Source: Candidatus Hadarchaeum sp.
GTDB taxonomy: Archaea; Hadarchaeota; Hadarchaeia; Hadarchaeales; Hadarchaeaceae
Direction: 5' to 3'
Length of the DNA: 64,000 bases
NCBI RefSeq assembly: GCF_049969415.1
Contig: NZ_JBMFOX010000001.1
Location: 2,405-66,404 of the forward strand
The notes beneath the pieces are model-generated. The model was not told where the DNA came from. It saw only the letters and a list, made by a program, of their open reading frames with translations, and searched no databases. The position numbers and the translations under genes were made by a program. Below, one piece after another: positions 20,779-43,884 of the stretch (positions are counted from its first letter, which is position 1; each line of letters opens with the position of its first letter).

Positions 20779-20828
20779 AATCGGGACCAAAAAAGGCTTA
20801 AGGATTTGACAGGAAAAATCTCTATGAG

Positions 20829-26522: not shown

Positions 26523-26900
26523 TTATTGTTCATCGCTGTATTGATTAAAGAAATTAACGCCGGCGTGCTGGCCGTAACCCGTCTTCTGTTTTCAGGCGAC
26601 ATTCAGCTAAGCGGGCTACCACCCGCCTCCGGCAGGCGTTCATCGGCGGCAATTTGCCCTTGCATCCCGCGTGATGGCCGTTTCATCCCCAGCGACACGA
26701 CCTCAGCGTTGCCGCATCATGGCGCGAGTCGTGGGGTGTCGTTTCTGTGCCATCTTCCCGACCTCTCGGCCGTACCCTTGCGGGGCCGCGGACCTGCCCG
26801 ATGGACGGAATTTCCTCAGGCTTGCGCCCGACGGTCGCCCACCAGCTCGCCGGCAATTAAATTCCCATCTTTCAGCCTTTAGATTTTCCGCCTGGACCTA

Positions 26901-27734
26901 TTAACCGAAGGCCACATCGAGGATCATCATTACCACAAATCCCAGCATGGCGCCTATCGTGGCCAAATCATGGTTGCCCCCCGTCTGCGATTCAGGAATC
27001 AGCTCCTCGATGACGACGAAGATCATCGCCCCGGCGGCAAAGGCTAGGGCATAAGGCATGATGGAACGGGCCGAGATGACCGTCGCCGCCCCGATTACGG
27101 CCGCGACCGGCTCAACGACCGCGGACAGCTGCCCGTACCAGAAGCTCCTCAACCGGGACATGCCCTCGCGCCTGAGCGGCAGGGAAACCGCCAGCCCCTC
27201 CGGGAAGTTCTGGATCCCGATGCCGACAGCCAGCGCGGTCGCCCCGGCGAGGGTGGCGAAAGGCAACCCCACAGTAACCGCCCCGAACGCGACCCCCACG
27301 GCGAGCCCCTCGGGGATGTTGTGGAGGGTTATGGCCAAAACGAGCAAAGTGGTTCTCTGCAGGCTCGTCTTGGGTCCCTCCGCCTCGCGCATGGGAAGGC
27401 CGAGATGCAGATGGGGCAGGGCTCTGTCCAAAATCTGCAGTAAAGCCCCGCCGGCGATAAAGCCGACCGCGGCTGGCAACCAGGCCGGAAAACTTCCCTC
27501 CGCAGACATTTCTATCGCCGGGATGAGCAGAGACCAAACGCTGGCCGCGATCATGATGCCAGCCGCAAATCCGAGCATGCCGTCCATCACCCTCCGGTTG
27601 AAAGCCCTGAAAAAGAAAACTCCAGAAGCTCCCAGCGCCGTTAAGCCCCAGGTAAACACGGTGGCCAGAAACGCCTGCATCACGGGATGAAGATCATAAA
27701 AGAAACCAAGCATGCCATCAGCCAGTTTATTCAA
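26901..27734 (-). CDS. ZIP-family divalent metal transporter
   Basis: HNIPEGLAVG motif; polytopic. Confidence 0.8.
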   Translation of the reverse strand: MNKLADGMLGFFYDLHPVMQAFLATVFTWGLTALGASGVFFFRAFNRRVMDGMLGFAAGIMIAASVWSLLIPAIEMSAEGSFPAWLPAAVGFIAGGALLQILDRALPHLHLGLPMREAEGPKTSLQRTTLLVLAITLHNIPEGLAVGVAFGAVTVGLPFATLAGATALAVGIGIQNFPEGLAVSLPLRREGMSRLRSFWYGQLSAVVEPVAAVIGAATVISARSIMPYALAFAAGAMIFVVIEELIPESQTGGNHDLATIGAMLGFVVMMILDVAFG

Positions 27735-27743
27735 GCATAAAAT

Positions 27744-27980
27744 TTAACCATCGACAAGAATTCCCACCACCGGAAACGTCGCCAGAAGTTCATCACCATG
27801 CGGAGCCTTCCCCATTGCCTCGGTCAGGTCTTCGCCGGCCCTGTGCCGGGCCTGGTGCCTGCCACCTTTCCAGAGAAAGCTGGAGGAGACATCATAAACC
27901 TTGCCCCGATAGGCGACATAAGCCGGTCTGCCCTCCCTGCCATCATAAACGGCCAGTTCCTCTCGACTGAACTTTCTCAT
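27744..27980 (-). CDS. Cytochrome b5-like heme/steroid-binding domain protein
   Basis: FSREELAVYDG...YVAYRGKVYDVS..W.GG.H..H.AG.DLT. Confidence 0.55.
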   Translation of the reverse strand: MRKFSREELAVYDGREGRPAYVAYRGKVYDVSSSFLWKGGRHQARHRAGEDLTEAMGKAPHGDELLATFPVVGILVDG

Positions 27981-28034
27981 GTAACCATCAATAGATAACT
28001 TCTAAAAAATAAAAAGGGGAGAGATAACCCCCAC

Positions 28035-28586
28035 CTACTTCAGAAACTTCGACACAAACGGTGACGTCTCTCCCCGCCTTAGGTAGTGTCCGGAAGGCCC
28101 TTCGCCGAGGAACTCCGAGAACCAAGATTCATGTTCGATCTCCTCGTTCAGGATTGACAGGGAAAGGTCATAGGTGCGATGATCTTTGCCCGCAGTTAAA
28201 TTGCAGATGTGTGTGTAGCCTCTTACCGCACATCTCTCCGCCTCGACCAGCACCTTCAACATCGCCCTGATGTCGGTTGGATCCCGGGGCAAGCTCGCCG
28301 GAGGACAGGCCGAGCAGTCGTGGAAGTCCTTCATGTTCTCCGGAAGTTTTCCGCCCAGCTCATATATCCGCGGCACCAAGGCCTCGAAGTGGTTACGGTC
28401 CTCAATTCTCGCCGTTTCGGCAATCTCCTTGATTCCCTCCCCCTCCAGACCGATCAAGTTCACCCGCAGAATTGTGTAGTAGTAATAAGTCGTCAGCTCT
28501 GCCGCTGCGTTCTTCACCAGCAACTCGACCAGCTCGTCGACATTGACGCCTGATCTCTCCACCATCTCCCGCGCCACTTTAGCCAT
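28035..28586 (-). CDS. Ferritin-like / Dps-like protein
   Basis: Four-helix-bundle diiron-like spacing of E/H residues, 183 aa. Confidence 0.45.
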   Translation of the reverse strand: MAKVAREMVERSGVNVDELVELLVKNAAAELTTYYYYTILRVNLIGLEGEGIKEIAETARIEDRNHFEALVPRIYELGGKLPENMKDFHDCSACPPASLPRDPTDIRAMLKVLVEAERCAVRGYTHICNLTAGKDHRTYDLSLSILNEEIEHESWFSEFLGEGPSGHYLRRGETSPFVSKFLK

Positions 28587-28618
28587 TTTCTCACCTCCTG
28601 AAATTTTTCAAACTCTTT

Positions 28619-28843
28619 TTAACCCAAATCTGCTGCCCGTCTTCCGGAATCGGTCAGGAGGTATTTTCCCTGCTCCTCGCGGACCAGGCCGGCTTCCACG
28701 AGTTCCCTTAGGCCGGCCCTAACCCGAAACAGCGGGAGATTTGTCTCCTTGGCGACCTCCTCCGGGGTGCGAGATTCGGCTAGGGCCAAGAGTATTTTTC
28801 TGCCTGACTCGGTGGGCTTGCCATCCGGCGATATGCAGGCCAA
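28619..28843 (-). CDS. Small winged-helix transcriptional regulator
   Basis: wHTH pattern, 74 aa. Confidence 0.45.
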   Translation of the reverse strand: MACISPDGKPTESGRKILLALAESRTPEEVAKETNLPLFRVRAGLRELVEAGLVREEQGKYLLTDSGRRAADLG

Positions 28844-28847
28844 GCCT

Positions 28848-29501
28848 TCACCTCGCCAGCTTCTTTTTGCAGAAGTACCAGTCCTTGCAGTCGTAGCCCT
28901 GTTTCAGCCTTTCCTCGGCCGCCTCCTGGGTGGCCGGAGGAGGAACGATGACGTCCTCACCGGGCCTCCAGTTGGCTGGCGTGGCGACATGGTACTCATC
29001 AGTGGTCTGCAGGGCGTCGATCAGCCTGAGGATCTCGTCGGTGTTCCTCCCCGTCGTCAGCGGGTAGTAGATCATCGCCCGGACGATCCCGTTGGGGTCG
29101 ATCACAAAGACGCATCGGGTAGTCTCGGTCTTGCTTTCTCCCGGCATGATCATACCGTAGAGCTGCGAAACTTTCTTGTCCAAGTCGGCGATCACGGGAA
29201 ACGGTATCTTGACACCGAACTTCTCCTCGATGTTTCTTATCCAAGCGATGTGGGAAGTCACGCTGTCAACGCTCAATCCCAAGAGCTGAACGTTCCTCTT
29301 TTGAAGCTCGGGGTAAATCTTTGCGAAGGCGATGAACTCGGTGGTACAGACGGGCGTGAAATCGGCGGGATGGGAGAACATGATGAGCCAGCTGCCCCTG
29401 AAATCCGAAAGCTTCAGTTTTCCCTGCGTGGTCACGGCCTCGAACTCGGGCGCCTTCTCACCCAGTCGCGGCAGCGTTTTTACCTCCAAACTTTCCTCCA
29501 T
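28848..29501 (-). CDS. Peroxiredoxin
   Basis: Peroxidatic Cys motif FTPVCTTE. Confidence 0.85.
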
Positions 29502-29544
29502 TTTTTACACCTCCCCATTTTTCTGTCAAAAAAATTCAGTATTT

Positions 29545-29880
29545 TCATCCCCATTTGCCCTTGCCCACGTGGGTCTGAACCTCGGTTCTGGACCTCTGCC
29601 TTATCATCCATGCCATTTCCTTGGCTTGGGTGAATATTTCCAAGCACCTCGGGTCAAGGTTATCCCTGATTCCGTTCTCCGCAACCGCCAAGACCTCGCT
29701 CAGCAGCTTCTGCAGCGAAACATGCAGATCGTTGGTGTATCTGGACCTCTCGATCAGCTGCGCCTTATCATCCGGCAGCTTCTCAAATTTTTCCCTGGGT
29801 GCGCCACAGTTGGGGCACTTCTCCGGCGGATTCTCGCCGTCGTAAATGTAGCCGCAAACCAAACACTTCCACTTCATCAT
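29545..29880 (-). CDS. Rubredoxin-domain protein (N-terminal rubredoxin knuckles plus an uncharacterised C-terminal domain)
   Basis: [12 protein letters not shown]...CPNCGAP. Start re-set to MMKWK to avoid overlapping rubrerythrin. Confidence 0.5.
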
Positions 29881-29908
29881 CTCCACACCTCCATCAATTA
29901 TCTCCGTC

Positions 29909-30412
29909 TCAGAACCCCTTAAACTCTGTCTCCGGGGCTCCGCATATGGGACATCTCTTCGGCGCCTCACCCTCAACGGTGTAGCCGCATTTTTTGCAGA
30001 TGTAGATGGTCCCGATTTCAATGTCCGAGCCGCTCAGCACGCTCTGCCTAGCCTGCTGGTACATCCCGGCATGCACCTTCTCCGCCTGCAGCGCATAGTT
30101 AATGCTCCGCTGCGCTCCCAGCTCGTTCTGGAGATCGGCGACGGCTTTAAACGCCGGGTACATCTCCTCAACCTCATATGTCTCACCGTCAATCGCCGCC
30201 TGCAAATTTTCCGCTGAACTTCCGACCTGCCCGAGCGTTCGCAGATGGTTCGCTGCATGCACCAGTTCCGCGTAGGAAATGGCCCGGAAAAGTCTGGCCA
30301 CGTTTTTAAGCCCCTCTTCCTCGGCCCTCTCGGCAAATATGGCGTACTTCATGTGGGCCTGGCTTTCTCCCGCAAAAGCTTCTTTCAAATTTTTCTCGGT
30401 CATTTTCTTCAT
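29909..30412 (-). CDS. rbr: Rubrerythrin
   Basis: N-terminal ferritin-like EAFAGESQA...; C-terminal rubredoxin-like CKKCGY...CPICGAP. Start set at [13 protein letters not shown]. Confidence 0.8.
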
Positions 30413-30508
30413 CCAATCCCCAAGAGTTAATTTATCTACGGATTTATTAAACTTTTGTCCGAAAAAAGGATTTATATGTCCCAAATTATTATTAAACAGG
30501 ATGAAAAC

Positions 30509-30934
30509 ATGGTGGACGAGCTCGATCTGAAGATTCTGCAAATGCTGGAGAACGACGGCAGCCTATCCTTCACGGAAATTGCCAGGAGGCTGAGGCTGAA
30601 CGAGTCAACGGTCCGGAAAAGAGTTCTTGCCCTGAAGGAGAAAGGAGTGATAAAAAAATTCACCATCGTCGTCGATCATGAAAAGATCGGCTTCTCCACC
30701 TTGGCAGTGGTCGGCATCGACGCCACACCGGATAAACTGCTGGAAATCGCGCAAAAATTGGCGGAACTGCCTGAGACTAAATACGTGGCCACCTCAACGG
30801 GAGACCATATGATAATGACCGAAATCTGGGCCAGGGACGGCAGGGAGCTCTCCAGAATCCTCTCCGAAAAAATCGGTGCCATTGAAGGGGTGAAAAAAAT
30901 CTGTCCGGCTATCATCCTCGAAAAAATCAAGTGA
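30509..30934 (+). CDS. Lrp/AsnC-family transcriptional regulator
   Basis: HTH LDLKILQMLENDGSLSFTEIARRL plus RAM domain. Start at MVDELD. Confidence 0.8.
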   Translation: MVDELDLKILQMLENDGSLSFTEIARRLRLNESTVRKRVLALKEKGVIKKFTIVVDHEKIGFSTLAVVGIDATPDKLLEIAQKLAELPETKYVATSTGDHMIMTEIWARDGRELSRILSEKIGAIEGVKKICPAIILEKIK

Positions 30935-31023
30935 ATTAATCCCGTCTGGTTTTATAGGCTATTGAAAAAATCCCACCAATCTTGAAATACTGCGGCTGGA
31001 TTTTGCTGGATTGTGTAAAGAAA

Positions 31024-31383
31024 TCAGGCCGAAAAATGCTTCTTGTATAGCTCGTCCCGGATAACATCGATGACTTTTGTTCCGACATGAACTTTGGCGA
31101 CCTTCAACTTTTCCTCCTTAAGAAGCGATAGCGCCCCAAGCCCAATCTCGGCGGCCACGACCACGTCCACACCGAACTCTTTCAGCTTCTGAACAACCAC
31201 CCGGCCCCTGCCCCGGGAAAGTCCCGCCGCCGGATTTTTCATTATCTCCAAGTGAACCTTTTTCCCCTCGACTGTGGCTATGGTGAATGTCTCCGCCTTG
31301 GCAAAGTGGTCTGCAACTTCGTCTCCTAGCCCTTTCTGTCCCTTGGTAGCAATGGCCACCTTAACCTTGGCCATATGTGTCAC
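31024..31383 (-). CDS. NifX/NafY-like dinitrogenase FeMo-cofactor-binding domain protein
   Basis: KVAIATKG...HFAKAETF...VVAAEIG pattern. Confidence 0.6.
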   Translation of the reverse strand: MTHMAKVKVAIATKGQKGLGDEVADHFAKAETFTIATVEGKKVHLEIMKNPAAGLSRGRGRVVVQKLKEFGVDVVVAAEIGLGALSLLKEEKLKVAKVHVGTKVIDVIRDELYKKHFSA

Positions 31384-31648
31384 GGGATTTTGATTCTTCC
31401 AGCTGTTTAATCCGTTCCTGAACGAGCTCCAGCTCTTGCTTCAATCTCTCCATATGGTTTTTGAGATAGTCGATTTCTTCTTCCGGAGTCAATGCCATCG
31501 CGGGTGGACGCGGAGCGTAGAGCCACCAGCAGGCTCCCGGACCGTAGAGCCAACCGGGCCGCTGCCAGGGTGGCAAGTAGCTGAACGGACCATGTCCCGG
31601 CCAATCACCGAACCGCCGATATCCCTTCCGACCGAACATTTCCATCAC
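31361..31648 (-). CDS. DUF5320-like small protein
   Basis: Trp/Pro-rich N-terminal half followed by a C-terminal coiled coil. Typical partner of NifX-like genes. Confidence 0.4.
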   Translation of the reverse strand: MMEMFGRKGYRRFGDWPGHGPFSYLPPWQRPGWLYGPGACWWLYAPRPPAMALTPEEEIDYLKNHMERLKQELELVQERIKQLEESKSRDTYGQG

Positions 31649-31774
31649 CGAAATATGTTCTATAGCACAAAATATAAAAAGCTTTGGTTCTGACCAATTC
31701 AGCGGCCATAGGAAATACTAAACGCGTCCGTTCGAAAGTTGGAATATCTGCCGCTGTACCGATTTCTCGAAATC

Positions 31775-32686
31775 TCAAATCTCTATTCCTAGAAATATTC
31801 TAACCCCAACACCGATTAGAAACGTCAGCGCGGCAACCCCGAGGCTGATTGCCGCCATTTCGGCAAATCTCCGCAGAAAAGGAAATCCCCTAGCAACTGA
31901 CACGTAGTAGGTGAAGACAAATATAATGAAAACGGCGAACAGTATTGTCAACCCCAGTGAGAGGAGTGTTTCCTGAAACAGGAGAAACGGAGCTATCAAA
32001 AGCATGACTGTGGCCAGATAAGCTACTCCTGTGTAAAGCGCGGCCTTACCCGGACGTTTTGATGAGTCCTCCGCCTTGGTCGACAGATACTCGGAAGTTG
32101 CCATAGAAACGGAGGCAGCGATGCCCGTGATCAACCCCGCAACGGCAACATAGCGGCTGTTCTCGAAGGCAAAGCTGAACCCGGCCAGTGCCCCAGTTAG
32201 CTCCACCAGAGCGTCGTTCAGTCCCAGCACCATGGAGCTAACATACTCAAGCCTTTCCTCGTGAATTGAATCGATAAGTTGTTTCTCGTGATCCTCCTCA
32301 TCCCTTAGGATTTCCTCAGCCTCCGGTATAATTTTTGACAGCTTTTCATAGTTTTCCTGCGCTCGCTCCTCGCTTTTTTCCATCAATTTCAGGCCAAAGG
32401 TTATTCCGAAAATTCTGGACACAAAAAGATAAAACCAGACCAACGGCCCGTTTGGCTTCACCTCGAGACCCGTGTGGTCCTTCCAGAAATTATAGTGTCT
32501 GAGCTCATCATCCGCCATCCGGCTCAATATCTCCTTAGTCCTCTGGTCCCTCGCCGAAGACGACAGCCTTTTGTAAATGTGAAGGCCGTTGATCTCCTCC
32601 TTCTGCGCAGCAACGAGGCTGTTTTTAATCTCGGTGCTCAAAGGATGAGAATTCATGAAGGTCAATTTATTCTGGACTCCTAACAA
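31775..32686 (-). CDS. VIT1/CCC1-family iron transporter with an N-terminal ferritin-like domain
   Basis: Ferritin-like ExxH N-domain plus a C-terminal 5-TM VIT1 region. Confidence 0.7.
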   Translation of the reverse strand: MLGVQNKLTFMNSHPLSTEIKNSLVAAQKEEINGLHIYKRLSSSARDQRTKEILSRMADDELRHYNFWKDHTGLEVKPNGPLVWFYLFVSRIFGITFGLKLMEKSEERAQENYEKLSKIIPEAEEILRDEEDHEKQLIDSIHEERLEYVSSMVLGLNDALVELTGALAGFSFAFENSRYVAVAGLITGIAASVSMATSEYLSTKAEDSSKRPGKAALYTGVAYLATVMLLIAPFLLFQETLLSLGLTILFAVFIIFVFTYYVSVARGFPFLRRFAEMAAISLGVAALTFLIGVGVRIFLGIEI

Positions 32687-32766
32687 TTTAGATTTTGTCT
32701 TCCGGCAGTGCTACTTAATTCTACCAGAACAATCAGCAGGGTCATTGTCCGTGAGAACAAGTTTAT

Positions 32767-33552
32767 TTATTCTTTCGCTCTCTTAAGCCATCTCAACTTG
32801 CCTCTACCAATCTTCACTTCCACGCGAGGTTTGGTGGCAAGGTAAACCGAGCGAACGTTCATCCCGACAAAGTCATCCTGAACTCGCGTCAGTTCCTGCA
32901 GCGTCAGCGGTCTCACCCGACTGGGTCTCAATGGAGTATTTAACTGGACCTCATCGGGATTTATCTCCTTGGCGATTTTGGCAATTTCACGTGAAAATTT
33001 CATGTTCTCCGGGACTAACATGACCTCCAGCTGAAACCTGCCCCTGAACTCAGCGCGAAATTTCTTTAAACCCTCAACTATCTCGTGGAAATAAATGCCC
33101 GAGTGCGGCCGATTTACCGCCTGAAGTAACTGCTCGTCGGAAACATCCAGCTTGCCTTTCACGATATCTGCCTTGGCCAAATCTTCCCTTACCTCCCTCC
33201 GGATTTTGAGCGAAGAATTGGTCAGAACCGCCACCGGAAGTCCCGAGATTTCTCGGGCTATATCTATAAGCTGCCCCAAGTTCCGAGCCAGCGTTGGTTC
33301 ACCCGTGCCAGAGAAGGTCACCACATCGGCCCTAACCTTATTAACTGCCCGCTTGAGGGCGCGCGCGACCTGGTCTTCGGTGACAAAAACCCTCCGTTCG
33401 ACCGACTTCTCGGTTGTGGGTCCGAGAGAGCAGTAGATGCAGTCGAAGGAGCAAATTTTTCCTTTCTGACAAATCGGATCCACGCCCAGTGATCTCCCCA
33501 GTCGCCAAGAGGAAACCGGACCGTAAACAATTGCCATAAATCGACCAGCCAC
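32767..33552 (-). CDS. Radical SAM domain protein
   Basis: CSFDCIYC (CxxxCxxC) near the N-terminus. Confidence 0.7.
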   Translation of the reverse strand: MAGRFMAIVYGPVSSWRLGRSLGVDPICQKGKICSFDCIYCSLGPTTEKSVERRVFVTEDQVARALKRAVNKVRADVVTFSGTGEPTLARNLGQLIDIAREISGLPVAVLTNSSLKIRREVREDLAKADIVKGKLDVSDEQLLQAVNRPHSGIYFHEIVEGLKKFRAEFRGRFQLEVMLVPENMKFSREIAKIAKEINPDEVQLNTPLRPSRVRPLTLQELTRVQDDFVGMNVRSVYLATKPRVEVKIGRGKLRWLKRAKE

Positions 33553-33648
33553 ATTCTCCTTTAGCCCATTTTTGAACTCGCGACAAATAAATGCCTCGGT
33601 TGCGCCTTAGAAAAGTAACTGCCGATACCAATTGGATTTACCAAGAAA

Positions 33649-34386
33649 TCACAACATCTTGAGCGCCCACATCAGAGCAATTCCGATTATAAACGCGAAG
33701 AAGGCCACCAAGGTTCTGGTGGTGCTCGCCTCTTTGTGCAGCTCGGGAACCAGATCCGAGGCCGCGATGTAGAGAAATCCGCCCGCGGCGAAGGGCAGCA
33801 AAAACATCATCGCGATTTCATGGTGGGGGAACAAATAATAGCCCAGAATTCCTCCTGCCACCGCCGTCAAAGCAGTCACAAAATTCAAAAACAGCGCCTT
33901 TCGAGAGCTGAGACCGCCGTAGACCAAGACGCCGAAATCTCCCAGCTCCTGCGGAATTTCGTGTGCAGCGATGGCGATGGTGGCGGTCAATCCGAGAGGT
34001 ACGCTCACGACGAAACTGGCCGCCATGATCAAGCCATCGATAAAATTGTGCACGCCATCACCAATGAGGTTTAGATAAGCGAAGGTATGTATCGGGCACG
34101 CTCTCTCATGACAGTGCCGCCAGAGCAGTTTCTCCAGGATAAAAAAAATCACGAAACCTACGATCACCATCAAGAAGACATCTTCCAAACTGGCGGTTCC
34201 GCTAGCTATCGCTTCCGGCAACAGGTGGAGAAAACCGCCGCCGATCATAGCCCCAGCAGCAAACCCGATTTGTGCCAGCAATATTTTCTTTAACATATTT
34301 TCTGATAACACCAGTGTGGCCGCCCCGATGAATGAAATCAGGCTAACGATAAATGTAGCCAAAAGAATCCAGAGAACCTCGATCAT
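33649..34386 (-). CDS. ZIP-family divalent metal transporter
   Basis: HEIPQELGDF motif; polytopic. Confidence 0.8.
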   Translation of the reverse strand: MIEVLWILLATFIVSLISFIGAATLVLSENMLKKILLAQIGFAAGAMIGGGFLHLLPEAIASGTASLEDVFLMVIVGFVIFFILEKLLWRHCHERACPIHTFAYLNLIGDGVHNFIDGLIMAASFVVSVPLGLTATIAIAAHEIPQELGDFGVLVYGGLSSRKALFLNFVTALTAVAGGILGYYLFPHHEIAMMFLLPFAAGGFLYIAASDLVPELHKEASTTRTLVAFFAFIIGIALMWALKML

Positions 34387-34387
34387 T

Positions 34388-34831
34388 TCAACCCTCCCGT
34401 TTACATCTTACGTCGGTGAAGATGGTTTTCTTGCAGGGACATGATGTGGGGTGTCCATAGGTGCGACAGATGGTATTAATCAGTTCCATCGAGGCATGAT
34501 AATCCAGTTTAGAAGCCTCTTTACAAGCGCTCTTGGGGTCGTACTTTAACAAATCCGCAAAGAGCACCTCCAAGATGCGGTGTTTTCTTAGCAACTTTCG
34601 GGCCTCTCGTTTGCCTTCCTCAGTCAACTCGACGCCTCGATAGGGCCGGTGGACAAGTAACCGTTTCTTGGAAAGATTTCGCAACACTTCAGTTACCGTG
34701 GCGGGTCGAACTTTGAAAATTTTTGCGATACTTGTGGTACTGACATCCGATGAGCCCTCAACCTGCTTTCTGTAGATCAACATTAGATACTTGGTCTCTG
34801 TCTCTGTCAAAGCTGCTTCCGCCTTCATCAT
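34388..34831 (-). CDS. DtxR/MntR-family metal-dependent repressor with a Cys-rich C-terminal tail
   Basis: DtxR HTH pattern (TTSIAKIFKVRPATVTEVLRNL...). C-tail CKEAS...CRTYGHPTSCPCKK...RCK. Confidence 0.75.
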   Translation of the reverse strand: MMKAEAALTETETKYLMLIYRKQVEGSSDVSTTSIAKIFKVRPATVTEVLRNLSKKRLLVHRPYRGVELTEEGKREARKLLRKHRILEVLFADLLKYDPKSACKEASKLDYHASMELINTICRTYGHPTSCPCKKTIFTDVRCKREG

Positions 34832-34838
34832 TATCAGA

Positions 34839-34861
34839 AAATTTAGGATTTACCTAAATTT
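34839..34861 (+). promoter_or_regulatory. Perfect 9-5-9 inverted repeat AAATTTAGG-ATTTA-CCTAAATTT, 8 bp upstream of the dtxR-family start. Candidate DtxR-type operator overlapping the promoter
   Basis: Read directly from the sequence. The TTAGG...CCTAA ends match the terminal half-sites of the DtxR/IdeR box (TTAGGTTAGCCTAACCTAA). Confidence 0.4.
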
Positions 34862-35002
34862 AACATTTTTGGTTGATAAGACGCAAAAACTTACGTGGCG
34901 ACGATTTAAAATCCAGACGAAACATCAAAAAATGAGTGTATGTCAGAAGTTGCTTTAGATGAACTTTGCCAAAATATTTGTTTTTAACCCGCGGTGCCGG
35001 AC

Positions 35003-35448
35003 ATGATCGGGAAAACTAAATCATTTGAATATGCACTGGAAAGGGCCGGGATGGCAAGGTTTAACTTGGTCTCAGTCTCAAGCACTATCCCGCCCGGGTG
35101 TAAAATGATTAGCCGCGGAAAAGTTTGAAAATGCTCTCATACGGGCAAATTGTCTTTGGAGTTTTCGCCAGATGTTGCGGCAACGAAAGGGGGCGCCTGA
35201 TATCAGCGAGTATCGGCTGTGCGATACCTGCGAACAAGAACACCTATGAGTACATCAGCGGACATGATGCCTGCGGGCAAACCGCGAATGAAGCGGGCGA
35301 CTATGCTGAAGATCTGGCCGCATCAACGCCCGCTGGCTTCCTAGGCCTAACTTTCGATCCTGAGAAAATTTGGAATGAGAGAAAGCAGATTTGGAAAATT
35401 TCGGGGAAAATAGTAAGAACCACCAACATCACCCAGACTACCCTATGA
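35003..35448 (+). pseudogene. pdaD: Pyruvoyl-dependent arginine decarboxylase (PdaD), apparently frameshifted at an A4 run (~35119-35122). Pseudogene or sequencing indel
   Basis: Frame A (35003-35128) gives MIGKTKSFEYALERAGMARFNLVSVSSTIPPGC, matching the PdaD Ser-Ser self-cleavage region. Frame B (35113-35448) gives ...LISASIGCAIPANKNTYEYISGHDACGQTANEAGDY..., which I align by hand with the PdaD alpha chain. The two frames differ by -1. Confidence 0.55.
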
Positions 35449-36369
35449 AGAAAGGAATGTGGTCAACGGTCTTTGCCGCGACTGTATTTGTTCTGTAATA
35501 TTCTTTGGTCCACCAAAAGTAACCGAATCGCCTGTCCTAATCCTTCGACAATTTTTCCCAAACAGGCTAACAAACTTCGCGACGGCCCTGCTGCCCGTGC
35601 AGTGGCACGGCATCAGCGATTCCACGCTGAACTCCTTAAATTTCCCGGCGGTCCAAGTTATCCTTCCCGTGTCTGATTTATACAGATGAAAGCCACCCAA
35701 GACCGCGTGCAAGCAGCTGGAACCGGTCATCCTCTGAGCGCTTTCAATCGTGTTAACTATTCCAGCATGAGCACAGCCGGTGATGACCAACAACCCCGCG
35801 CCCTTGACCCTCACAAAAAGTGCCTGATCGTCAGGGAGGTTGTCCTTAACAAGCCTTCCCTCCCTCTTTGTCCTGAAACCCTTAACCTGCTCCAGCCGGT
35901 TGGTTCTTTTAATTTCACCGCTGACCCAGACACCTGGGACCAATTGGTAAGGTTTTTTATTTCGGATCAAAATACCGCCGGCGCTTTCGAGCTCCGCAGC
36001 CGTGCACGGCATGCCGATCTTCTTGGGCTTCTTCTTTTTTAACACAAATTTTGGTTCAAGCGCCTCTGGATGGAGAATTATGGGCAATTTTTTATTGATA
36101 AACTTCAAAACACCAAGAAGCCCGCCAGTATGATCGCTATGTCCATGGCTGAGGGCGATGTAATCCACTTTCTTCAGGTCAACACCAAGCCTTCTGGCAT
36201 TATCCAAAACCGCCTCCGCCTCAGGCCCGGCATCGAAAAGCAAATGGAGGCTGCCTCGGGCCGATTCAACTTCGATAAAAAAGGATAGCCCATGCTTCGC
36301 AACAAGGTCGGGCCTCCTTTTGGTGTCCTCAATCAGAACCGTAAGTTTCAGGCCATCTATCCCGCGCAA
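35443..36369 (-). CDS. MBL-fold metallo-hydrolase
   Basis: HGHSDHTGG motif. Confidence 0.75.
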   Translation of the reverse strand: MRGIDGLKLTVLIEDTKRRPDLVAKHGLSFFIEVESARGSLHLLFDAGPEAEAVLDNARRLGVDLKKVDYIALSHGHSDHTGGLLGVLKFINKKLPIILHPEALEPKFVLKKKKPKKIGMPCTAAELESAGGILIRNKKPYQLVPGVWVSGEIKRTNRLEQVKGFRTKREGRLVKDNLPDDQALFVRVKGAGLLVITGCAHAGIVNTIESAQRMTGSSCLHAVLGGFHLYKSDTGRITWTAGKFKEFSVESLMPCHCTGSRAVAKFVSLFGKNCRRIRTGDSVTFGGPKNITEQIQSRQRPLTTFLSS

Positions 36370-36715
36370 GTTCTCCCTCCTCCGGTTCCTGCGGTGGCCT
36401 ATCGGCGATTATCAGAGGCCTGCGCTCGACCATCATCTGAACGACCTTTTTTCTGGCGCTCTCCAGACAGCGCCACACGGTGCCGCGGGAGATCTTCATC
36501 CTCTGGGCGACCTCATCCTGATTCAGGCCCTCGATGTAGGTCAGGCGGAGGGACTCGTACTCATCGTAGGAGAGATAGATCGGCCCTGAGGTGGAAATCG
36601 GCCCCTCTCCGGGAGACCAAGGAACGAACATAGTCGGGGCCGGTATGGAGCTGAGAAATCTCGGCTTCATCGGCCTGCCCGGACCGTGCCTTCGCCAGCA
36701 CCATCTTCGCGGCAT
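36329..36715 (-). CDS. DUF134/UPF0251-family DNA-binding protein
   Basis: MPRRWCWRRHGPGRPMKPRF...DEYESLRLTYIEGLNQDEVAQRMKISRGTVWRCLESARKK matches the DUF134 layout. Start re-set to MPRRW. Confidence 0.6.
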   Translation of the reverse strand: MPRRWCWRRHGPGRPMKPRFLSSIPAPTMFVPWSPGEGPISTSGPIYLSYDEYESLRLTYIEGLNQDEVAQRMKISRGTVWRCLESARKKVVQMMVERRPLIIADRPPQEPEEGELARDRWPETYGSD

Positions 36716-36759
36716 GGTATCATTACTTTTGTGTTCATTCGCACATAATAACATTTACC

Positions 36760-38763
36760 TCAGATTCCCAGAGGGTTGAGGTGATTGAAGATCCCGCCCA
36801 CCAGCAGAGCGAGGACAAAGGTACCGATTGTTATCAGTATCGCGTCCTTCCATCCCAGCTCCTGCTTGAGGGCCGCCACGGTCGCCGCGCAGGGGACGTA
36901 GATTGAGACGACGAGGGCGAAGACAAAAAGCTGCAGCGGCGTCATGAACTCCAGCAGATTTGAGGTACCGGCCAACGCGACCAGCAGAACCAGTGCCCCC
37001 TCCTTCCTGATAAAACCGTAAAGCAGCGAGATGATGGTTACCGCGGGCAGTCCGAGCCAGCCCGAGGTAAGCGGGGAAAGCGGGCTTACTATCACGGACA
37101 GCAAGCCGGAAACGTCCAGGGCACCTATTGCCAAGCTGCCGAGGATGAGGATCGGGGTGGCAAAGTAAACGAAGTGCTTCATCCTCATCCAGGTCTTACT
37201 CAACAGGGGCCTGAGCATGGGGACGCGCAGCGGCGGCACCTCCATTATCATCCCGGAAACCTTACCGCGCAGAAAGCGGTTGAGGAGCAAACCGACGATG
37301 AAGATCAGGACCAAGATGATGCCGTAGATTAGAAGCGCGTACTGGACCCCCAAAAAATATCCCACCGTGCCCAAGATGACGGCAGTCCGGGCGGAGCAGG
37401 GTACCATGGTGATGAGGAAGTTGGCGATCAACCTCTCCCGCCTCGTCGTCAGCACCCGGGTGGACATAATCGCGGGCACGTTGCAGCCGAATCCGCCCAG
37501 CATCGGGACGACTGCACGGCCGTGAAGTCCTATCCGGTGCATCGCTGAATCCATCACGAAGGCCATGCGCGGAAGATAGCCCACATCCTCAAGCAGGGCA
37601 AGGATGAGAAAAAAGACCAGAATGTATGGGATCACGACCGCCAAGATCCCGGAAATACCCTGGTTAATTCCGATGTCAAGGACCCGTCCCAGATTGCCAA
37701 GAGAAGTAAAAAAGCCGCTGAGAACGGGAGAAACATAGGCATCCCAAGCTCCAACCACCAACCCCTCCAAAAATCCACCCACGTAGATCAATAGGAGGAT
37801 AAGGGCGGCAAACACGGCCAACATTATCGGTACGCCCGTTCGCATGTTTGAGGTGATGTCGTCCAGACGGTAGGTCCACTTCGGCTTGACCGGAACTATG
37901 TCAGTCACCTCCTTCGAAATCATGGCCGCGATCCCATGGCGCTCGCGGGCAATCCTGTAAGCGGACGGCTCCCCGTACTCAACCGCCATTTCCCGCGCCA
38001 GCTTTCTCGCCTTCATCAAAAAGCTCTCGCTGCCGGGGAGATCAGCCACGGCCCGGATGAGGTGTTCATCGCCCTCTAAGAGCTTTAGGGCCAGAGTGCG
38101 GGCGGAGAGATTGAAAGGGGCCTTGCCCCGGAACTTTGCGATCTCGACCGCGAGTTCCCTTATCGCCTTCTCCGTGTCCCGGCTCAGTGGCAAAACCCGC
38201 TTGGGTCTTTTTCCCTCGAGGGCAATCTTTATGGCCTCATCAAAGGCCCTGGCCACGTTTTCCCCGTGGGTGGCCACGGTGGTTATCACCGGCAAACCGA
38301 GCTTCTTCGCGAGCTTTTCCGTGCTCGGGTGAAGCCCCTTCGCCAGCGCCACATCATACATATTCAAAACCAGCAGCATCGGACGACCCAGCTCCATCAG
38401 CTGCAGGGTCAAGAAAAGACTACGCTCCAAGTTAGAGGCGTCGGCTATGTTCATAATCACGTCGGGCTCCTGTTCCAAGATAGCACGCCGGGCAACCAGC
38501 TCATCTTGGGAAACCGCACCAAGCGAATAAACTCCAGGCAGATCGATTACCCTGATGTCGTGCTCGCCGCGCTTCACCCGGCCCTCCATCAGCTCCACCG
38601 TTGTTCCGGGATAATTGGAAATTATAACATCAGCCCCGGTGATCTGATGAAAGATCGCGCTCTTGCCCACGTTGGGAGTTCCCGCAAGCGCCACCACTAT
38701 CTCGGGTTTTTTTGTTTCCGGCACCGAAATCACCAAAGATTTAATGCCAGCCCCGACCGGCAC
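36760..38763 (-). CDS. feoB: Ferrous iron transporter FeoB
   Basis: G-domain GTPNVGKS and DLPG motifs; polytopic C-terminal permease. Confidence 0.9.
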   Translation of the reverse strand: MPVGAGIKSLVISVPETKKPEIVVALAGTPNVGKSAIFHQITGADVIISNYPGTTVELMEGRVKRGEHDIRVIDLPGVYSLGAVSQDELVARRAILEQEPDVIMNIADASNLERSLFLTLQLMELGRPMLLVLNMYDVALAKGLHPSTEKLAKKLGLPVITTVATHGENVARAFDEAIKIALEGKRPKRVLPLSRDTEKAIRELAVEIAKFRGKAPFNLSARTLALKLLEGDEHLIRAVADLPGSESFLMKARKLAREMAVEYGEPSAYRIARERHGIAAMISKEVTDIVPVKPKWTYRLDDITSNMRTGVPIMLAVFAALILLLIYVGGFLEGLVVGAWDAYVSPVLSGFFTSLGNLGRVLDIGINQGISGILAVVIPYILVFFLILALLEDVGYLPRMAFVMDSAMHRIGLHGRAVVPMLGGFGCNVPAIMSTRVLTTRRERLIANFLITMVPCSARTAVILGTVGYFLGVQYALLIYGIILVLIFIVGLLLNRFLRGKVSGMIMEVPPLRVPMLRPLLSKTWMRMKHFVYFATPILILGSLAIGALDVSGLLSVIVSPLSPLTSGWLGLPAVTIISLLYGFIRKEGALVLLVALAGTSNLLEFMTPLQLFVFALVVSIYVPCAATVAALKQELGWKDAILITIGTFVLALLVGGIFNHLNPLGI

Positions 38764-39469
38764 GGCGCCGAACCCTTCTCATCGCTGCCCGCTTCACCAA
38801 AATTTTTGAAGCTATGTCGCGGCTGAGCGCGACCTGTATTTTACCGCACTGGAGCATGATGGCCCCGCGAGGGAGCTTTTCTGTCACCATCACCTTAGAA
38901 CCGGGGAGGATGTTCAACGCCAGCAGACGTTCCACCGCCTCCTTCTCCTCCGGAATCGTCGCCACCGTTCCCCATTCGCCGCACCCCAGGTCTGAAAGAG
39001 GTTCCAAGCTTGGCTGTTCCGAATTGCCTCTGGATCGAGGTATGATCCCCCCGTGAGGACAGGTAACCGGCCTTTTGAGGAGTTCGTCAATTTTTTCCGT
39101 CAGCTCATCGTCGAAAACATGCTCGAACTCGCAGGCGTGTTCATGGATCCCTGGCAGCTCATGACCAAAGACATCACAAAGCAAACGCTCCGCCAACTTG
39201 TGGCGTCGCACGACCCTGATAGCCTCGTCCATGCCGCGGTCGGTAAGCGCGGCCCCGGAACGATCTCGAGTAACCAACCCCTTATCGCTCAGCCGGGAAA
39301 GCATCTCGACCACGCTGGGGTCCTTTACCTTAAGTTTCTGGGCTAGCTCGCTCACCTTGACCCGTTGCTTTGCCTTGGACTGCTCCCTGTAGATGGCCTC
39401 CAGATACTCCTCCTCCGAGGCCGAGAGCTTGGATCCCTTCCTGCACGCGTGCGGGACCATAGTAATCAT
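38741..39469 (-). CDS. DtxR-family metal-dependent regulator fused to a C-terminal FeoA-like domain
   Basis: N-terminal DtxR HTH plus metal-site residues. C-terminal SH3-like FeoA segment (GEWGTVATI...LNILPGSKVMV). Confidence 0.7.
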   Translation of the reverse strand: MITMVPHACRKGSKLSASEEEYLEAIYREQSKAKQRVKVSELAQKLKVKDPSVVEMLSRLSDKGLVTRDRSGAALTDRGMDEAIRVVRRHKLAERLLCDVFGHELPGIHEHACEFEHVFDDELTEKIDELLKRPVTCPHGGIIPRSRGNSEQPSLEPLSDLGCGEWGTVATIPEEKEAVERLLALNILPGSKVMVTEKLPRGAIMLQCGKIQVALSRDIASKILVKRAAMRRVRRRAGRGWH

Positions 39470-39514
39470 TAATTAGGTAAACCTAAATTAATTTAAATCT
39501 TTAGGCGAACCTAA
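39468..39514 (+). promoter_or_regulatory. Two DtxR-box-like inverted repeats, TTAGGT-AA-ACCTAA (39473-39486) and TTAGG-CGAA-CCTAA (39501-39514), flanking the TATA-like TTTAAAT (39492-39498) directly at the start codon of the dtxR-feoA gene
   Basis: Read directly from the sequence. Same half-site (TTAGG/CCTAA) as the repeat at 34839-34861. Confidence 0.4.
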
Positions 39515-39602
39515 AAATCACCGCACGCTAAAAACACGTCAAAGGAAAAACCCAACACAAGGCTTTTAGAAAACATGATCAATTTAATGACGTTATGATA
39601 CC

Positions 39603-41291
39603 ATGCAGGACGTCTCCATACTCATAGGCGGCCAAGCCGGAGACGGAATGATGAGGGCTGCCGAACTGATTGGCAGAATCTTCAACCGACTGGGCCTTTA
39701 CGCCTTTGTGATAAACGACTACGGATCGCTCATCCGGGGAGGCCATAACTTTTGCAAGATAAGGGCGGCGGATAGGCAGATTTGGCATCACCGGGATTCT
39801 GTGGACCTTATCGCCGCCGTTAACCAAGACACCATAGCCAAGCACCAAAACGAGCTGACAAGCGGTGGCCGCGTTCTCTATGACAGCGACACGGCTAAGT
39901 ACGAAGGACCCCACGAACCGTTGCCGATACCGCTTACAACAATGGTCAAAGGTGTGGGCGGTGTTCCCATCATGAGAAACTCGGCAATGATCGGCGCCAT
40001 CGCTGGTCTTTGCGGAGTTCCGTTAAACATTATCGAAGACATCCTCAACCGAGCCTACGGTGAAAAAGCGGCCAAAAACATTGAGCTTGTAAAAATGGGA
40101 TATGAATTCGCCGGGAAAAATTTCAAGCCAATTCTAAAAATCGAGATAATAAAACGTGATCCAACTCCATTTATCTCGGGAGCAGAGAGCTTGGCCCTCG
40201 GAGCGGTCAAGGCAGGGATGAAGCTTTACATCACTTACCCCATGACCCCTTCAACCGCCATCCTGAACTACCTCGGTCCGGCCCAAGACGAGCTCGGCAT
40301 CGTTTTGGTGCATCCGGAAAATGAGATCGGGGTAGCCAACATGGCGCTGGGCGCGGCCTATGCGGGGGTGAGAACGATGGTCGGCACGGCTGGCGGCGGC
40401 TTTGCCCTGATGCAGGAAGCATTCAGCATGGCCGGCCAAGCTGAAATCCCTGTTGTGTTCGTTGTGGGGCAACGGGTTGCCCCGGCCGTGGGAGCACCCA
40501 CCTACACCGCACAGGCGGACCTAAAGTTCTTGCTCAACGCCGGACACGGAGAGTTTCCACGCATAGTTGTGGCCCCGGGAGATCCGGAGGAGGCGTTCGT
40601 GAAAACTGGTGAGGTTATGAACCTAGCTTGGAAGTACCAATCGCCAGCCATTGTCATCGTAGACAAGCACCTCCTGGAGAGTTACATGAGCATCGCGATC
40701 GACGAGAATGGGGTTCGGTTGGAACCGGCTGAGTTCGCCGCGGAACAGGTAGAGTATCGGAGATATCGGTTCACCGATAGTGGAATATCACCAATTACAT
40801 TCCCTGGCAAGAAAGGTGCTGTCGTCAAGGTCACCAGCTATGAACACGATGAGTATGGATACGCTGAAGAAACCGCAGAGGGCATACAAAAAATGCAGGA
40901 GAAAAGGTTGCGAAAGCTCTCATCGATGATCCGAGATCTTAAGGAAAGGGAGACGGTGAAAATCCACGGTGATTCAAAGGCTGAAAACCTGGTGTTGGCA
41001 TGGGGTTCCACCAAAGGGGCAATCCTGGAAGCGATGAACCTCATCGACAGACCGATACGGTTCCTGCAGATCATTTATCTGAGCCCGTTCCCAGAGTGGG
41101 AGGTTTCCCGGCATCTCAGAACAGCGAATAATGTTCTATTGGTCGAGGGCAACCTAACCGGTCAACTCGGATCACTGATAGCAGAAAAAACTGGATTCCG
41201 CATTAAAAACGCCGTTCTCAAAAATGATGGAAGGCCATTTGACCCTGTTCTCTTGGCAAACAAGATACGGGAGGCGTTCGGATGGAAATGA
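39603..41291 (+). CDS. 2-oxoacid:ferredoxin oxidoreductase, alpha subunit with a fused N-terminal gamma domain
   Basis: N-terminal ILIGGQAGDGMM (gamma-type), then the alpha-domain TPP/pyrimidine-binding region. 562 aa. Confidence 0.8.
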   Translation: MQDVSILIGGQAGDGMMRAAELIGRIFNRLGLYAFVINDYGSLIRGGHNFCKIRAADRQIWHHRDSVDLIAAVNQDTIAKHQNELTSGGRVLYDSDTAKYEGPHEPLPIPLTTMVKGVGGVPIMRNSAMIGAIAGLCGVPLNIIEDILNRAYGEKAAKNIELVKMGYEFAGKNFKPILKIEIIKRDPTPFISGAESLALGAVKAGMKLYITYPMTPSTAILNYLGPAQDELGIVLVHPENEIGVANMALGAAYAGVRTMVGTAGGGFALMQEAFSMAGQAEIPVVFVVGQRVAPAVGAPTYTAQADLKFLLNAGHGEFPRIVVAPGDPEEAFVKTGEVMNLAWKYQSPAIVIVDKHLLESYMSIAIDENGVRLEPAEFAAEQVEYRRYRFTDSGISPITFPGKKGAVVKVTSYEHDEYGYAEETAEGIQKMQEKRLRKLSSMIRDLKERETVKIHGDSKAENLVLAWGSTKGAILEAMNLIDRPIRFLQIIYLSPFPEWEVSRHLRTANNVLLVEGNLTGQLGSLIAEKTGFRIKNAVLKNDGRPFDPVLLANKIREAFGWK

Positions 41292-42130
41292 GGGAATTCG
41301 ACACTCCGACGAAAAACACTTGGTGTCCAGGCTGCAACAATTTCGGCATCCTAACCGCCGTCAAGCAGGCGCTGGCGGAACTGGTGAATTCCGGAGAAAT
41401 GAAACCGGAGGAGATTGTAATCCTATCTGGAGTGGGGTGCCACGGCAAGATATCCGATTACATCAAGGTCAACAGCTTTTACTGCCTGCATGGAAGAACG
41501 ATACCGCCGGCAATGGGGATAAGGGTTGCCAACCAGAAGTTGAAAGTCATTGCTTTTTCCGGCGACGGTGACGCCTACGCCGAAGGAATCAGCCACGTCA
41601 TCCACGCGGCGCGGAGAAATCTAGACATAACATTGGTCGTGCACGACAACGAAGTTTTTGCCCTGACGACATCGCAGGTGACGCCCACCACCAAGAAAGG
41701 ATTCAAGACAAAGTCCGCTCCAAAGGGAAGTTTTGAAACCCCACTAAATCCGCTGCATCTCATGCTATCGTGCGGGGCCACCTTTGTGGCTCGCGGATTT
41801 TCGGGTGATATAAAGCATCTTAAGTCAATACTAATCGAAGCCGTCAGACACCGTGGCTTTAGCTTCATTGACGTTATTCAGGAATGTGTGACCTTTAACC
41901 CAATCAAGGAAAAATACCTGCCCAAAATTTATGATCTCAACAAAGAAGGCCACAAGGTGACAGACTTCTCCGCCGCCTGGAAAAGGGCGAGCGAGATCGA
42001 AAGGATACCGATAGGGATCTTCTATCGGGAGGAGAGAGAAACGTACGAAAAACAGCTGCTGAACGAAAGAATCCTCGTGGAAGAAGGACCAGTACCATCG
42101 ATAAAAAAGGTACTTCAGGAATTCACTTGA
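41282..42130 (+). CDS. 2-oxoacid:ferredoxin oxidoreductase, beta subunit (TPP-binding)
   Basis: GCHGKISDY...GDGDAYAEG TPP motif. 10-nt overlap with alpha. Confidence 0.8.
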   Translation: MEMREFDTPTKNTWCPGCNNFGILTAVKQALAELVNSGEMKPEEIVILSGVGCHGKISDYIKVNSFYCLHGRTIPPAMGIRVANQKLKVIAFSGDGDAYAEGISHVIHAARRNLDITLVVHDNEVFALTTSQVTPTTKKGFKTKSAPKGSFETPLNPLHLMLSCGATFVARGFSGDIKHLKSILIEAVRHRGFSFIDVIQECVTFNPIKEKYLPKIYDLNKEGHKVTDFSAAWKRASEIERIPIGIFYREERETYEKQLLNERILVEEGPVPSIKKVLQEFT

Positions 42131-42236
42131 ATTATTTTGAAAAGCTTAAATCCCGGCGGGAAAAAACTACTTGCATGCCAATTGACCGGGATTTTACGGC
42201 GAAGAGAAAAAAGTCGGGGCGCACTTAGGACATGAT

Positions 42237-42485
42237 GTGTTGGGACCGGTCAATTCGCCGAAAGAACTTGGAATCAACGGCACTTCAGTGACAGTTGACT
42301 GGGATGTATGCAATGGGTGTGCAACTTGTTCCGAGGTTTTCTCCTGTCAACATATTCGACACGGTTGAGGTGCAAAACATCCCACCCCAAATAGAAAATC
42401 TGATCCGGCAAGAGAACCCGACTGCATAAAGTGCCTCGCCTGCAAAAGCAGCTGCCCGACCAAGGCCATCCGGATTGAAAAATAA
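42237..42485 (+). pseudogene. Degenerate 2x[4Fe-4S] ferredoxin-like ORF (a delta-subunit-like remnant) with an in-frame TGA at 42366-42368
   Basis: Frame 0: ...VTVDWDVCNGCATCSEVFSCQHIRHG-TGA-GAKHPTPNRKSDPAREPDCIKCLACKSSCPTKAIRIEK. The first Cys cluster is irregular and the second is canonical. The +1 frame reads SPVNIFDTVEVQNIPPQIEN between them. Confidence 0.3.
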
Positions 42486-42529
42486 TCCACCGCCAACGCC
42501 AATCTTCCAGTACCCAATCACGCCTCAAC

Positions 42530-43042
42530 TCACAAGAACCTCTGAAACCTGTCCTTTTTCGCCCGGCAGATGGGACAAACCTCAGGAGGCTCTTCCCGCG
42601 CGCACAAATATCCACAAACAACACAGCGCCACACGGGAAGTGAAATTCCGGAGATTCCAGTGGAAACCGATGCCAACTTTGCCCTTTCCCGCTCCCCAGG
42701 CGGCGGGCGTCTTTCCGGTATCGAGCCAATTGTCTTTTTTCCGTCCAGCACTTCTTGGGAGACATAAAGGCCGCAATAGCAGGCACCGTAATCGTTTAGA
42801 TCTGCGTCCCGGTAATCACAGGGGCAGATGATATCCAAGTCCTCTTCTTTCTTGCCGGAGGCCAATCTGCAGGGGCAGGACCAGTATCCGTATCTTTGTT
42901 CGTTTACCAGCAAGCCTTTCACGAGGCTTTTGGCAAACTCGACATCGTTATTGAGGTGGTAGCCTGCTGCCTCCGCCTCCTTTTTCAGCCTGTTGTAAAG
43001 ATTATCGACGCTTTCCGGAGTTATCAAAACTTCACCGCTCAC
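42530..43042 (-). CDS. Ferredoxin:thioredoxin-reductase catalytic-subunit-like domain fused to a C-terminal rubredoxin domain (FDR-type)
   Basis: CPCR...CPC...CYC motif; C-terminal WRCVVCGY...CPICRAKK. Confidence 0.65.
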
Positions 43043-43317
43043 AGTCCCAGCGCCTTTTTTATCTCCTCCTCCTTAAATCCGACTACAACTCTGTTGTTAA
43101 TCACGATTGTGGGAAAAGATCTTCTCGGATTCCAACGATCCATTTCCCGCAAGGCCTCCTTTCTGCTTTCGCCGTCTAGAAGGTCTACATCCACATAAAA
43201 ATAATCAACACCAAGGCTGTCCAAAAGCCTCTTAGTTTTGCTACACCAGACGCATGTGCTCAGCGCGTACAAAACCACATCGCCCCTTTTTCTACCCTCA
43301 ACATGGTTCATTTTCAT
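43039..43317 (-). CDS. Glutaredoxin/thioredoxin-fold protein
   Basis: CVWC active site. 4-nt overlap with the upstream gene. Confidence 0.65.
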
Positions 43318-43458
43318 GGATCTCCTCTTTCAATCATGATTTCTGTTAGAATATCGAAAAGAATCTCTTGGTTTCTACGGAAGTATGGTCATTGGGCCGG
43401 GGCATGAAAAAATTGCCCCAGCGAAGCTTCTGGGCTGGACCCAAACAATCGCTGCCCA

Positions 43459-43884
43459 TTATATTTCTTCCATCAGTGTGGTAAAGGTGTCGTGGTGCTC
43501 TTCTTCGTCCTCAAGGATGTGTCTGAAAATCAGATTGGCTACTTCGTCGCCCTCCTTTCTCGCCAACTCTATTATCTTGGTGTACATGCTGATGGCGTTT
43601 TCCTCATCCTTTATGTCCTGGGCAATCATCTCTTTGAGGGTCTTGCCTACGACGATAGGCGAAGGCTTGGTCGTGGGCGTGCCTCCAAGGTAGTAAAGCC
43701 TTTCGGCTATCTTTTCCGCGTGCTTCATCTCAACTATGGCTATTTTTTTAAGCTCGTCCTTTACGGCAAAGCCCTTTACTCCGCCCCACATGACGTGCTG
43801 CCACATATACTGTATCGAGACTTGAAGTTCCCTAGCAATCGCGTCGTTTAACAGGTCCAGCAATTCCTTTGAAACCTTTTTCAT
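43459..43884 (-). CDS. Ferritin-like diiron protein (bacterioferritin/rubrerythrin-like)
   Basis: ExxH spacing (EMKHAEK..., EDEEEHHD), 141 aa. Confidence 0.5.
   Translation of the reverse strand: MKKVSKELLDLLNDAIARELQVSIQYMWQHVMWGGVKGFAVKDELKKIAIVEMKHAEKIAERLYYLGGTPTTKPSPIVVGKTLKEMIAQDIKDEENAISMYTKIIELARKEGDEVANLIFRHILEDEEEHHDTFTTLMEEI

Follow-up and report, generated by a model that had tools for sequence, protein, structure and literature searches.

Introduction

The gene pdaD is the usual archaeal gene for agmatine production, and a locus in 64,000 nucleotides of DNA from a Candidatus Hadarchaeum sp. (the whole stretch analysed here, referred to as the window) raises the question whether one archaeal lineage has abandoned it. 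A preliminary description of the window had placed pdaD at 35003-35448, split by one frameshift at an A4 homopolymer, and had offered a sequencing indel, a genuine pseudogene or a recoding event as explanations. With few exceptions, archaea need agmatine for polyamines and for the agmatidine of tRNA-Ile2, which reads AUA, and owing to agmatidine arginine decarboxylase is regarded as essential in most of them (PMC8503589; PMC12979288). Our comparisons indicate, with a probability of roughly 85%, that the locus is a genuine, fairly recent unitary pseudogene of pdaD, carrying several lesions and located at the orthologous position. As a feature a decayed pdaD is nothing unusual, although what it implies for the physiology is of moderate interest.

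Identity and extent of the pdaD locus

Both pieces of the split gene match the Pfam profile PF01862 well above its gathering score of 22.7. The first, an ORF of 44 aa at 34994-35128 whose peptide includes ERAGMARFNLVSVSSTIPPGCKMISRGKV and ends in FNLVSVSSTIPPGCKMISRGKV before the TGA at 35126-35128, covers profile positions 17-53 (E 1.3e-11, 45.1 bits); the second, the ORF at 35125-35448, carries the protein on in another frame, up to 35445, and covers positions 54-142 (E 1e-15, 58.4 bits). These E-values place the identification as pdaD, which had first been made from the sequence alone, far beyond chance. The local picture drawn earlier was equally accurate: the first frame ends at the TGA at 35126, an AAAA run occupies 35119-35122, and the remainder is read in a different frame as far as 35445.

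Neither piece includes profile positions 1-16 or 143-161, which are found in other frames. A three-frame translation reads M N .. P K Y L F L T R G A G H D R E at the N-terminus and K K G M W S T V F A A T V F V L, followed by a stop, at the C-terminus. The interval 35003-35448 does lie inside pdaD, but the gene extends beyond it on both sides (Table 1), as seen in a codon alignment with 14 Hadarchaeota orthologues, all of them gapless over 181 codons. It measures 540 nt in the window, compared to 546 nt in the orthologues. When the indels are repaired, the translation matches PF01862 over its full length (1-161 of 161, 141.7 bits), while staying below the cut-offs of the NCBIfam equivalog NF009064 (140.3, cut-off 207) and of TIGR00286 (91.7, cut-off 106.95).

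We mapped catalytic sites by alignment to the PvlArgDC of Methanocaldococcus jannaschii (chains 1n2m/2qqd). The Ser-Ser self-cleavage site is kept, as VSS at 35075-35083 aligned with Ser52-Ser53 of M. jannaschii, and so is the equivalent of Asn47. The coding sequence is spread over five frame segments, and no single ORF of about 160-190 codons exists. We infer that an active enzyme cannot be made, as the Ser-Ser site is cut off from the body of the α-subunit and the longest ORFs to survive are those of 44 and 107 aa.

We considered whether a low GC content might point to decay or to horizontal transfer, and rejected this, the value for pdaD (0.48) falling within the range of the intact orthologues (0.46-0.54). 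In most orthologues a purine-rich GAGG/GGAG motif is found 6-10 nt upstream of the ATG; it is missing at 34940-34958 of the window, where the sequence before the start reads CAGAAGTTGCTTTAG ATG, and its absence may represent a further decay of expression signals.

Four frame-breaking deletions

Aligned at the DNA level with the 14 orthologues, the window copy shows four frame-breaking deletions, of 2, 2, 1 and 1 nt. The frameshift reported near 35119-35123 is among them (lesion 3), but it is not the only one, and the single-frameshift model was rejected on the strength of this alignment and of the terminal profile parts found in other frames.

Lesion 1 affects codons 3-4, which encode Leu/Phe-Val/Leu in the orthologues, and is open to bypass by a TTG start at 34966; for lesions 2, 3 and 4 bypass is not possible. 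At lesion 2 the window reads GAA AAC T-- AAA, where the orthologues have GAA AAA TTG AAA. Lesion 3 aligns as GGA AAA G-T with ancestral GAA AAA GGT, and past it the original frame runs into the TGA at 35126-35128. The most parsimonious interpretation of this alignment is that one G was lost and one A substituted by G, with the length of the A-run unchanged, so that a lost G beside the A4 run replaces the change in homopolymer length that had been proposed. Lesion 4 aligns as CTA -TG with TTA GTG, the frame then stopping at the TGA at 35446-35448. The stop codon of the convergent metallo-β-lactamase-fold gene (35443-35445) abuts this lesion.

Table 1. Coordinates of the putative pdaD pseudogene, its lesions and frame segments, and adjacent features in the window
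Feature	Position	Strand	Description
DtxR-family metal-dependent repressor	34388..34831	-	PF01325/PF02742 on the L001 orthologue; 71% identical, single frame
Palindrome TTTAGGATTTACCTAAA	34842..34858	.	Intergenic, kept across relatives
Putative pdaD pseudogene, whole	34959..35498	+	Ancestral ATG at 34959 to TAA at 35496-35498; codon alignment with 14 orthologues
Lesion 1	34965..34968	+	TTTG, 4 nt compared to 6 in all orthologues; 2-nt deletion
Segment PKYLFLTRGAGHDRE(N), codons 5-20	34969..35017	+	Frame meets TAA at 35017-35019
Lesion 2, codons 19-20	between 35017/35018	+	2 nt lost; codon alignment
Segment KSFEYALERAGMARFNLVSVSSTIPPGCKMISRGK	35018..35122	+	PF01862 17-53; Ser-Ser site at 35078-35083
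Lesion 3, codon 57	35123	+	Single G compared to GG (GGT/GGC/GGG/GGA); 1-nt deletion
Segment LKMLSYGQ...NITQTTL, codons 58-166	35125..35445	+	PF01862 54-142
Lesion 4, codon 167	between 35445/35446	+	G of GTG lost; 1-nt deletion
C-terminal segment KKGMWSTVFAATVFVL, then stop	35448..35498	+	Third frame
Metallo-β-lactamase-fold gene, convergent	35443..36369	-	Final 56 nt shared with the 3' end of pdaD (35443-35498)

Orthology and genomic neighbourhood

Searches with the repaired protein yielded 2656 homologues. The best match was to a protein from a Hadesarchaea MAG (P0001, 84-85% identity), and the next were to dozens of 181-aa Hadarchaeota proteins with 65-76% identity. The contig that bears the best homologue, L001, served as the nearest relative. 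It is syntenic with the window across eight genes upstream of pdaD, encoding a P-type ATPase, a rubredoxin-domain protein, a Nitro_FeMo-Co protein, a small ORF, VIT1, a radical SAM protein, a ZIP transporter and a DtxR-family repressor, from which the intact pdaD of L001 is transcribed divergently. All eight neighbours are full length and in one frame in the window, with 57-92% identity to L001. The divergent repressor-pdaD pair occurs at 12 Hadarchaeota loci. Because of the synteny with L001 and the recurrence of this pair, the window copy is the positional orthologue of the intact genes, and the conserved divergent repressor marks the locus as the ancestral position of pdaD.

Between the repressor gene and pdaD, the palindrome TTTAGG(G)NTNNCCTAAATTTAA is present in the window, in L001 and in the related loci L008-L015, L020 and L030, and is duplicated in L009. 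It is probably the operator of the neighbouring repressor and does not belong to the pseudogene. On the other side, the metallo-β-lactamase-fold gene has no close homologue downstream of pdaD in the compared relatives.

The locus is enclosed by a dense cluster of genes for metal homeostasis and oxidative stress (24330-43884), which comprises a P-type ATPase, two ZIP transporters, two ferritin-like proteins, rubrerythrins, VIT1, two DtxR-family regulators (one of them fused to FeoA), FeoB, an FTR-rubredoxin protein and a glutaredoxin. Elsewhere, the window contains a full-length archaeal RNase P RNA (26563-26850, minus strand, 196 bits), overlapped by a spurious 138-aa ORF (26466-26882), a full-length serpin in this archaeal genome (5191-6474, minus strand, PF00079, E 1e-114), and four tandem paralogues with four CBS domains each (16084-19454, minus strand).

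Amino-acid replacements and relaxed constraint

At ten columns that are invariant in the 14 other Hadarchaeota sequences, the window copy carries a private replacement (I44T, E55G, D63Y, S76G, G99E, E103G, M125T, L126P, S139I, A177T). The same count for each of the other sequences is 0-5, with a median of 1 and a value of 1 for the nearest relative. Five of the affected residues (I44, G99, E103, M125, L126) are 99-100% conserved among 120 diverse homologues, none of which carries the residue of the window at these positions. For two of the replacements the comparison is unanimous: the codon ACT at 35084-35086, immediately after the Ser-Ser site, encodes Thr, in contrast to the Ile of 120 of 120 homologues (I44T), and GGA at 35260-35262 encodes Gly where all 120 have Glu (E103G). 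E103 is aligned with Glu109 of M. jannaschii, whose carboxylate reportedly assists the self-cleavage by which the pyruvoyl cofactor is formed in the PvlArgDC family (PMC2720952).

Outgroup-polarised parsimony assigned 16.5 nonsynonymous and 17.5 synonymous changes to the window branch, compared to 3 and 12 to the L001 branch, counts which are approximate because the synonymous sites are saturated. The nonsynonymous asymmetry (16.5 versus 3) has a one-sided binomial P of about 0.001. As a control at the protein level, the changes in the window and in L001 numbered 12 versus 13 for the repressor and 11 versus 11 for the radical SAM protein, but 11 versus 2 for pdaD. As the flanking genes are symmetric and pdaD is not, the relaxation is specific to pdaD.

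The pairwise dN/dS is still 0.047, at a saturated dS of about 1.7, and constraint on pdaD must therefore have persisted through most of the period after the split. At about 13 replacements in about 409 nonsynonymous sites, the excess is small beside that dS and, as a rough estimate, suggests that inactivation took place within roughly the last few percent of the window branch; it would accordingly be recent relative to the split from the nearest sequenced relative.

We thus find intact orthologues at the same position, disabling lesions, and relaxed selection that is specific to both lineage and gene, as would be expected of a unitary pseudogene. The ancestral pdaD would have decayed in place, through four deletions, an excess of missense changes and the loss of the Glu109 equivalent, and among the explanations offered at the outset the genuine pseudogene is the one that the deletions and the missense excess at invariant sites bear out. 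Such fresh decay at the ancestral position would mean that the lineage recently stopped depending on PdaD. For annotation, it means that the locus should carry a pseudogene label, rather than being "repaired" as a single homopolymer error.

Alternative explanations of the broken frame

The most serious alternative is that the organism has an intact gene and that the frameshifts are errors of sequencing or assembly, caused by homopolymer miscalls or a poor consensus. Three of the four deletion sites do lie in or beside short A/G runs, and the same lineage, which would have served as a replicate of the lesions, is absent from the genome contigs, the metagenome contigs and the protein index that we searched: queries for identical ZIP and repressor proteins gave no hit, and the best matches in a same-lineage scan were 87% in genome contigs and 81% in metagenome contigs. 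Yet two of the lesions remove 2 nt each, and at none of the four sites is there a homopolymer of at least 5. Moreover, the four indels fall within 0.54 kb, as opposed to zero in about 5.9 kb of syntenic coding sequence from the eight flanking genes, a clustering with a chance probability of about 5e-5. About 50 further ORFs of the window have Pfam matches, none of them apparently broken, including SRP54, L21e, Rpo4, GGGP synthase, HypF, FeoB and oxidoreductase subunits. Finally, indel errors would not produce an excess of missense changes that is specific to pdaD and affects invariant residues, the Glu109 equivalent among them. We consider this explanation improbable, and in its trivial form, one miscounted homopolymer, it fails on the three additional deletions, on the 2-nt length of two of the lesions, none of which is in a long homopolymer, and on the gene-specific missense excess.

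Two other candidates for broken genes in the window were rejected. The overlapping ORFs 42274-42786 and 42530-43042 are a complete FTR-rubredoxin protein and an ORF without family, not a frameshifted gene, and the ORF of the IlvD C-terminus (63405-63938) runs off the end of the window.

It could also be supposed that the gene is functionally split, with a β-like N-terminal and an α-like C-terminal piece that are translated separately and then assembled, and the frameshift at codon 57 does follow closely upon the Ser-Ser cleavage site, the natural boundary of the β and α chains. This is very unlikely. The pyruvoyl group arises by serinolysis within an intact proenzyme (PMC2720952), whereas a separately translated α piece would begin with Met or Leu and lack the group; both pieces are, furthermore, broken again by lesions 2 and 4, and their product would be without the Glu109 equivalent.

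Programmed frameshifting or another form of recoding that restores full-length PdaD, for which the possibly slippery-looking A-rich stretch GGAAAAGTTTGAAAA next to lesion 3 might be cited, is the least probable of all and excluded in practice, because it would need four independent shifts of different sizes at unrelated sequences, present in 0 of 14 orthologues and hence without a conserved recoding signal, and would still yield a product without the catalytic Glu and with other changes at invariant sites.

A possible second broken pdaD in Hadarchaeota

The pdaD of Hadesarchaea DG-33 (L030 10001-10417, identical to L073, LQHI01000030.1) has internal deletions of 73 and 53 nt, both out of frame, the first of which removes the Ser-Ser site. 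It is otherwise about 97% identical to the gene of a neighbour species (L011). This copy may be an independent pseudogene or an artefact of MAG assembly; if the break is real, loss of pdaD is recurrent in the phylum.

Agmatine supply and AUA decoding

Within the window, AUA makes up 22% of the Ile codons (237 of 1076), with 10 in SRP54 alone, so decoding of AUA is still required. Given how common these codons remain, the organism probably still needs agmatine, and the earlier corollary, that with a pseudogene the organism must make agmatine in a different way or import it, stands. Of the possible solutions, a non-homologous arginine decarboxylase encoded elsewhere in the genome is the likeliest, with environmental uptake ranking second and loss of the requirement third. 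Some archaea without PdaD carry an AAT-fold decarboxylase instead (PMC8503589).

In the 64-kb window, tblastn searches with 121 PdaD queries revealed no second pdaD, the lowest E-value away from the locus being 0.07, and comparison of about 70 window ORFs with Pfam found no PLP-dependent or SpeH-type decarboxylase, agmatinase, aminopropyltransferase/spermidine synthase or TiaS. A literature search on Hadarchaeota and agmatine found nothing. We also weighed the reading that the pseudogene is real and no replacement enzyme exists, the organism either depending on its community for agmatine, as an auxotroph, or having lost the need for it. The latter variant would involve tRNA-Ile(UAU), which two archaea use in place of Ile2 (PMC8450103), together with an ornithine-based route to polyamines. 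The former has a parallel in Thermococcus kodakarensis, which depends on added agmatine for growth once it lacks pdaD (PMC12979288), and the broken gene of DG-33 would suit either. Against this stand the scope of the search, which covered 64 kb, the different decarboxylases found in other archaea that lack PdaD (PMC8503589), and the AUA codons, whose decoding is still required. On balance we regard the absence of a replacement as less likely than not.

Some Hadarchaeota, the lineage of the window and independently DG-33, might, as a tentative extension, be dispensing with PdaD while still decoding abundant AUA codons, either as cross-fed agmatine auxotrophs or by means of a type of arginine decarboxylase hitherto unrecognised in archaea. 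From the decay of pdaD one would predict that the rest of the genome encodes a non-homologous decarboxylase or an importer of agmatine, or else that the organism has switched to tRNA-Ile(UAU).

The window also contains a tRNA gene with the anticodon CAU (20828-20947, plus strand; Rfam tRNA, 62.6 bits; missed by ARAGORN), interrupted after position 37 by an intron of about 46 nt that holds the box C/D-like words AUGAUGU and CUGA. It is not an initiator, because of its G1-C72 pair, and its GCCGGGG acceptor stem and its intron look more like those of an elongator Met than of Ile2; comparison tRNAs that would distinguish Met from Ile2 were not present in 35 related loci. A 337-aa protein of the arginine deiminase/DDAH family is encoded at 3874-4887 (minus strand; PF02274, PF19420), and an arginine-modifying enzyme thus shares the window with the apparently dead arginine decarboxylase.

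Comparison with known systems

The window copy resembles the characterised PdaD/PvlArgDC enzymes of M. jannaschii (MJ0316; 1N2M, 2QQD) and T. kodakarensis (TK0149) in its PF01862 match, its Ser-Ser motif and its Asn47 equivalent. It differs from them in its four deletions, in the Gly that takes the place of the Glu109 equivalent, and in scoring below the NCBIfam equivalog cut-off even after repair.

The closest precedent for its decay is provided by the pseudogenes of aaxB, a PvlArgDC gene of Chlamydia trachomatis (Giles, Fisher and Graham 2009, PMC2720952). Both cases concern the same enzyme family and share lineage-specific inactivation and relaxed selection, and one missense change in aaxB is located on the β-strand that bears the Glu109 equivalent (PMC2720952). 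However, aaxB is a bacterial gene of acid resistance or exchange, inactivated by one nonsense or one missense change, whereas the window holds an archaeal biosynthetic gene, normally considered essential, with four frameshifts and several missense changes.

For life without PdaD, the precedents are Methanomicrococcus blatticola, with an AAT-fold arginine decarboxylase (aADC), and the Crenarchaeota, with an arginine decarboxylase derived from SpeH (PMC8503589). They do without PdaD while still needing agmatine, as the lineage of the window probably does; but in them pdaD is absent and the substitute is known, whereas in the window a decaying remnant is still in place.
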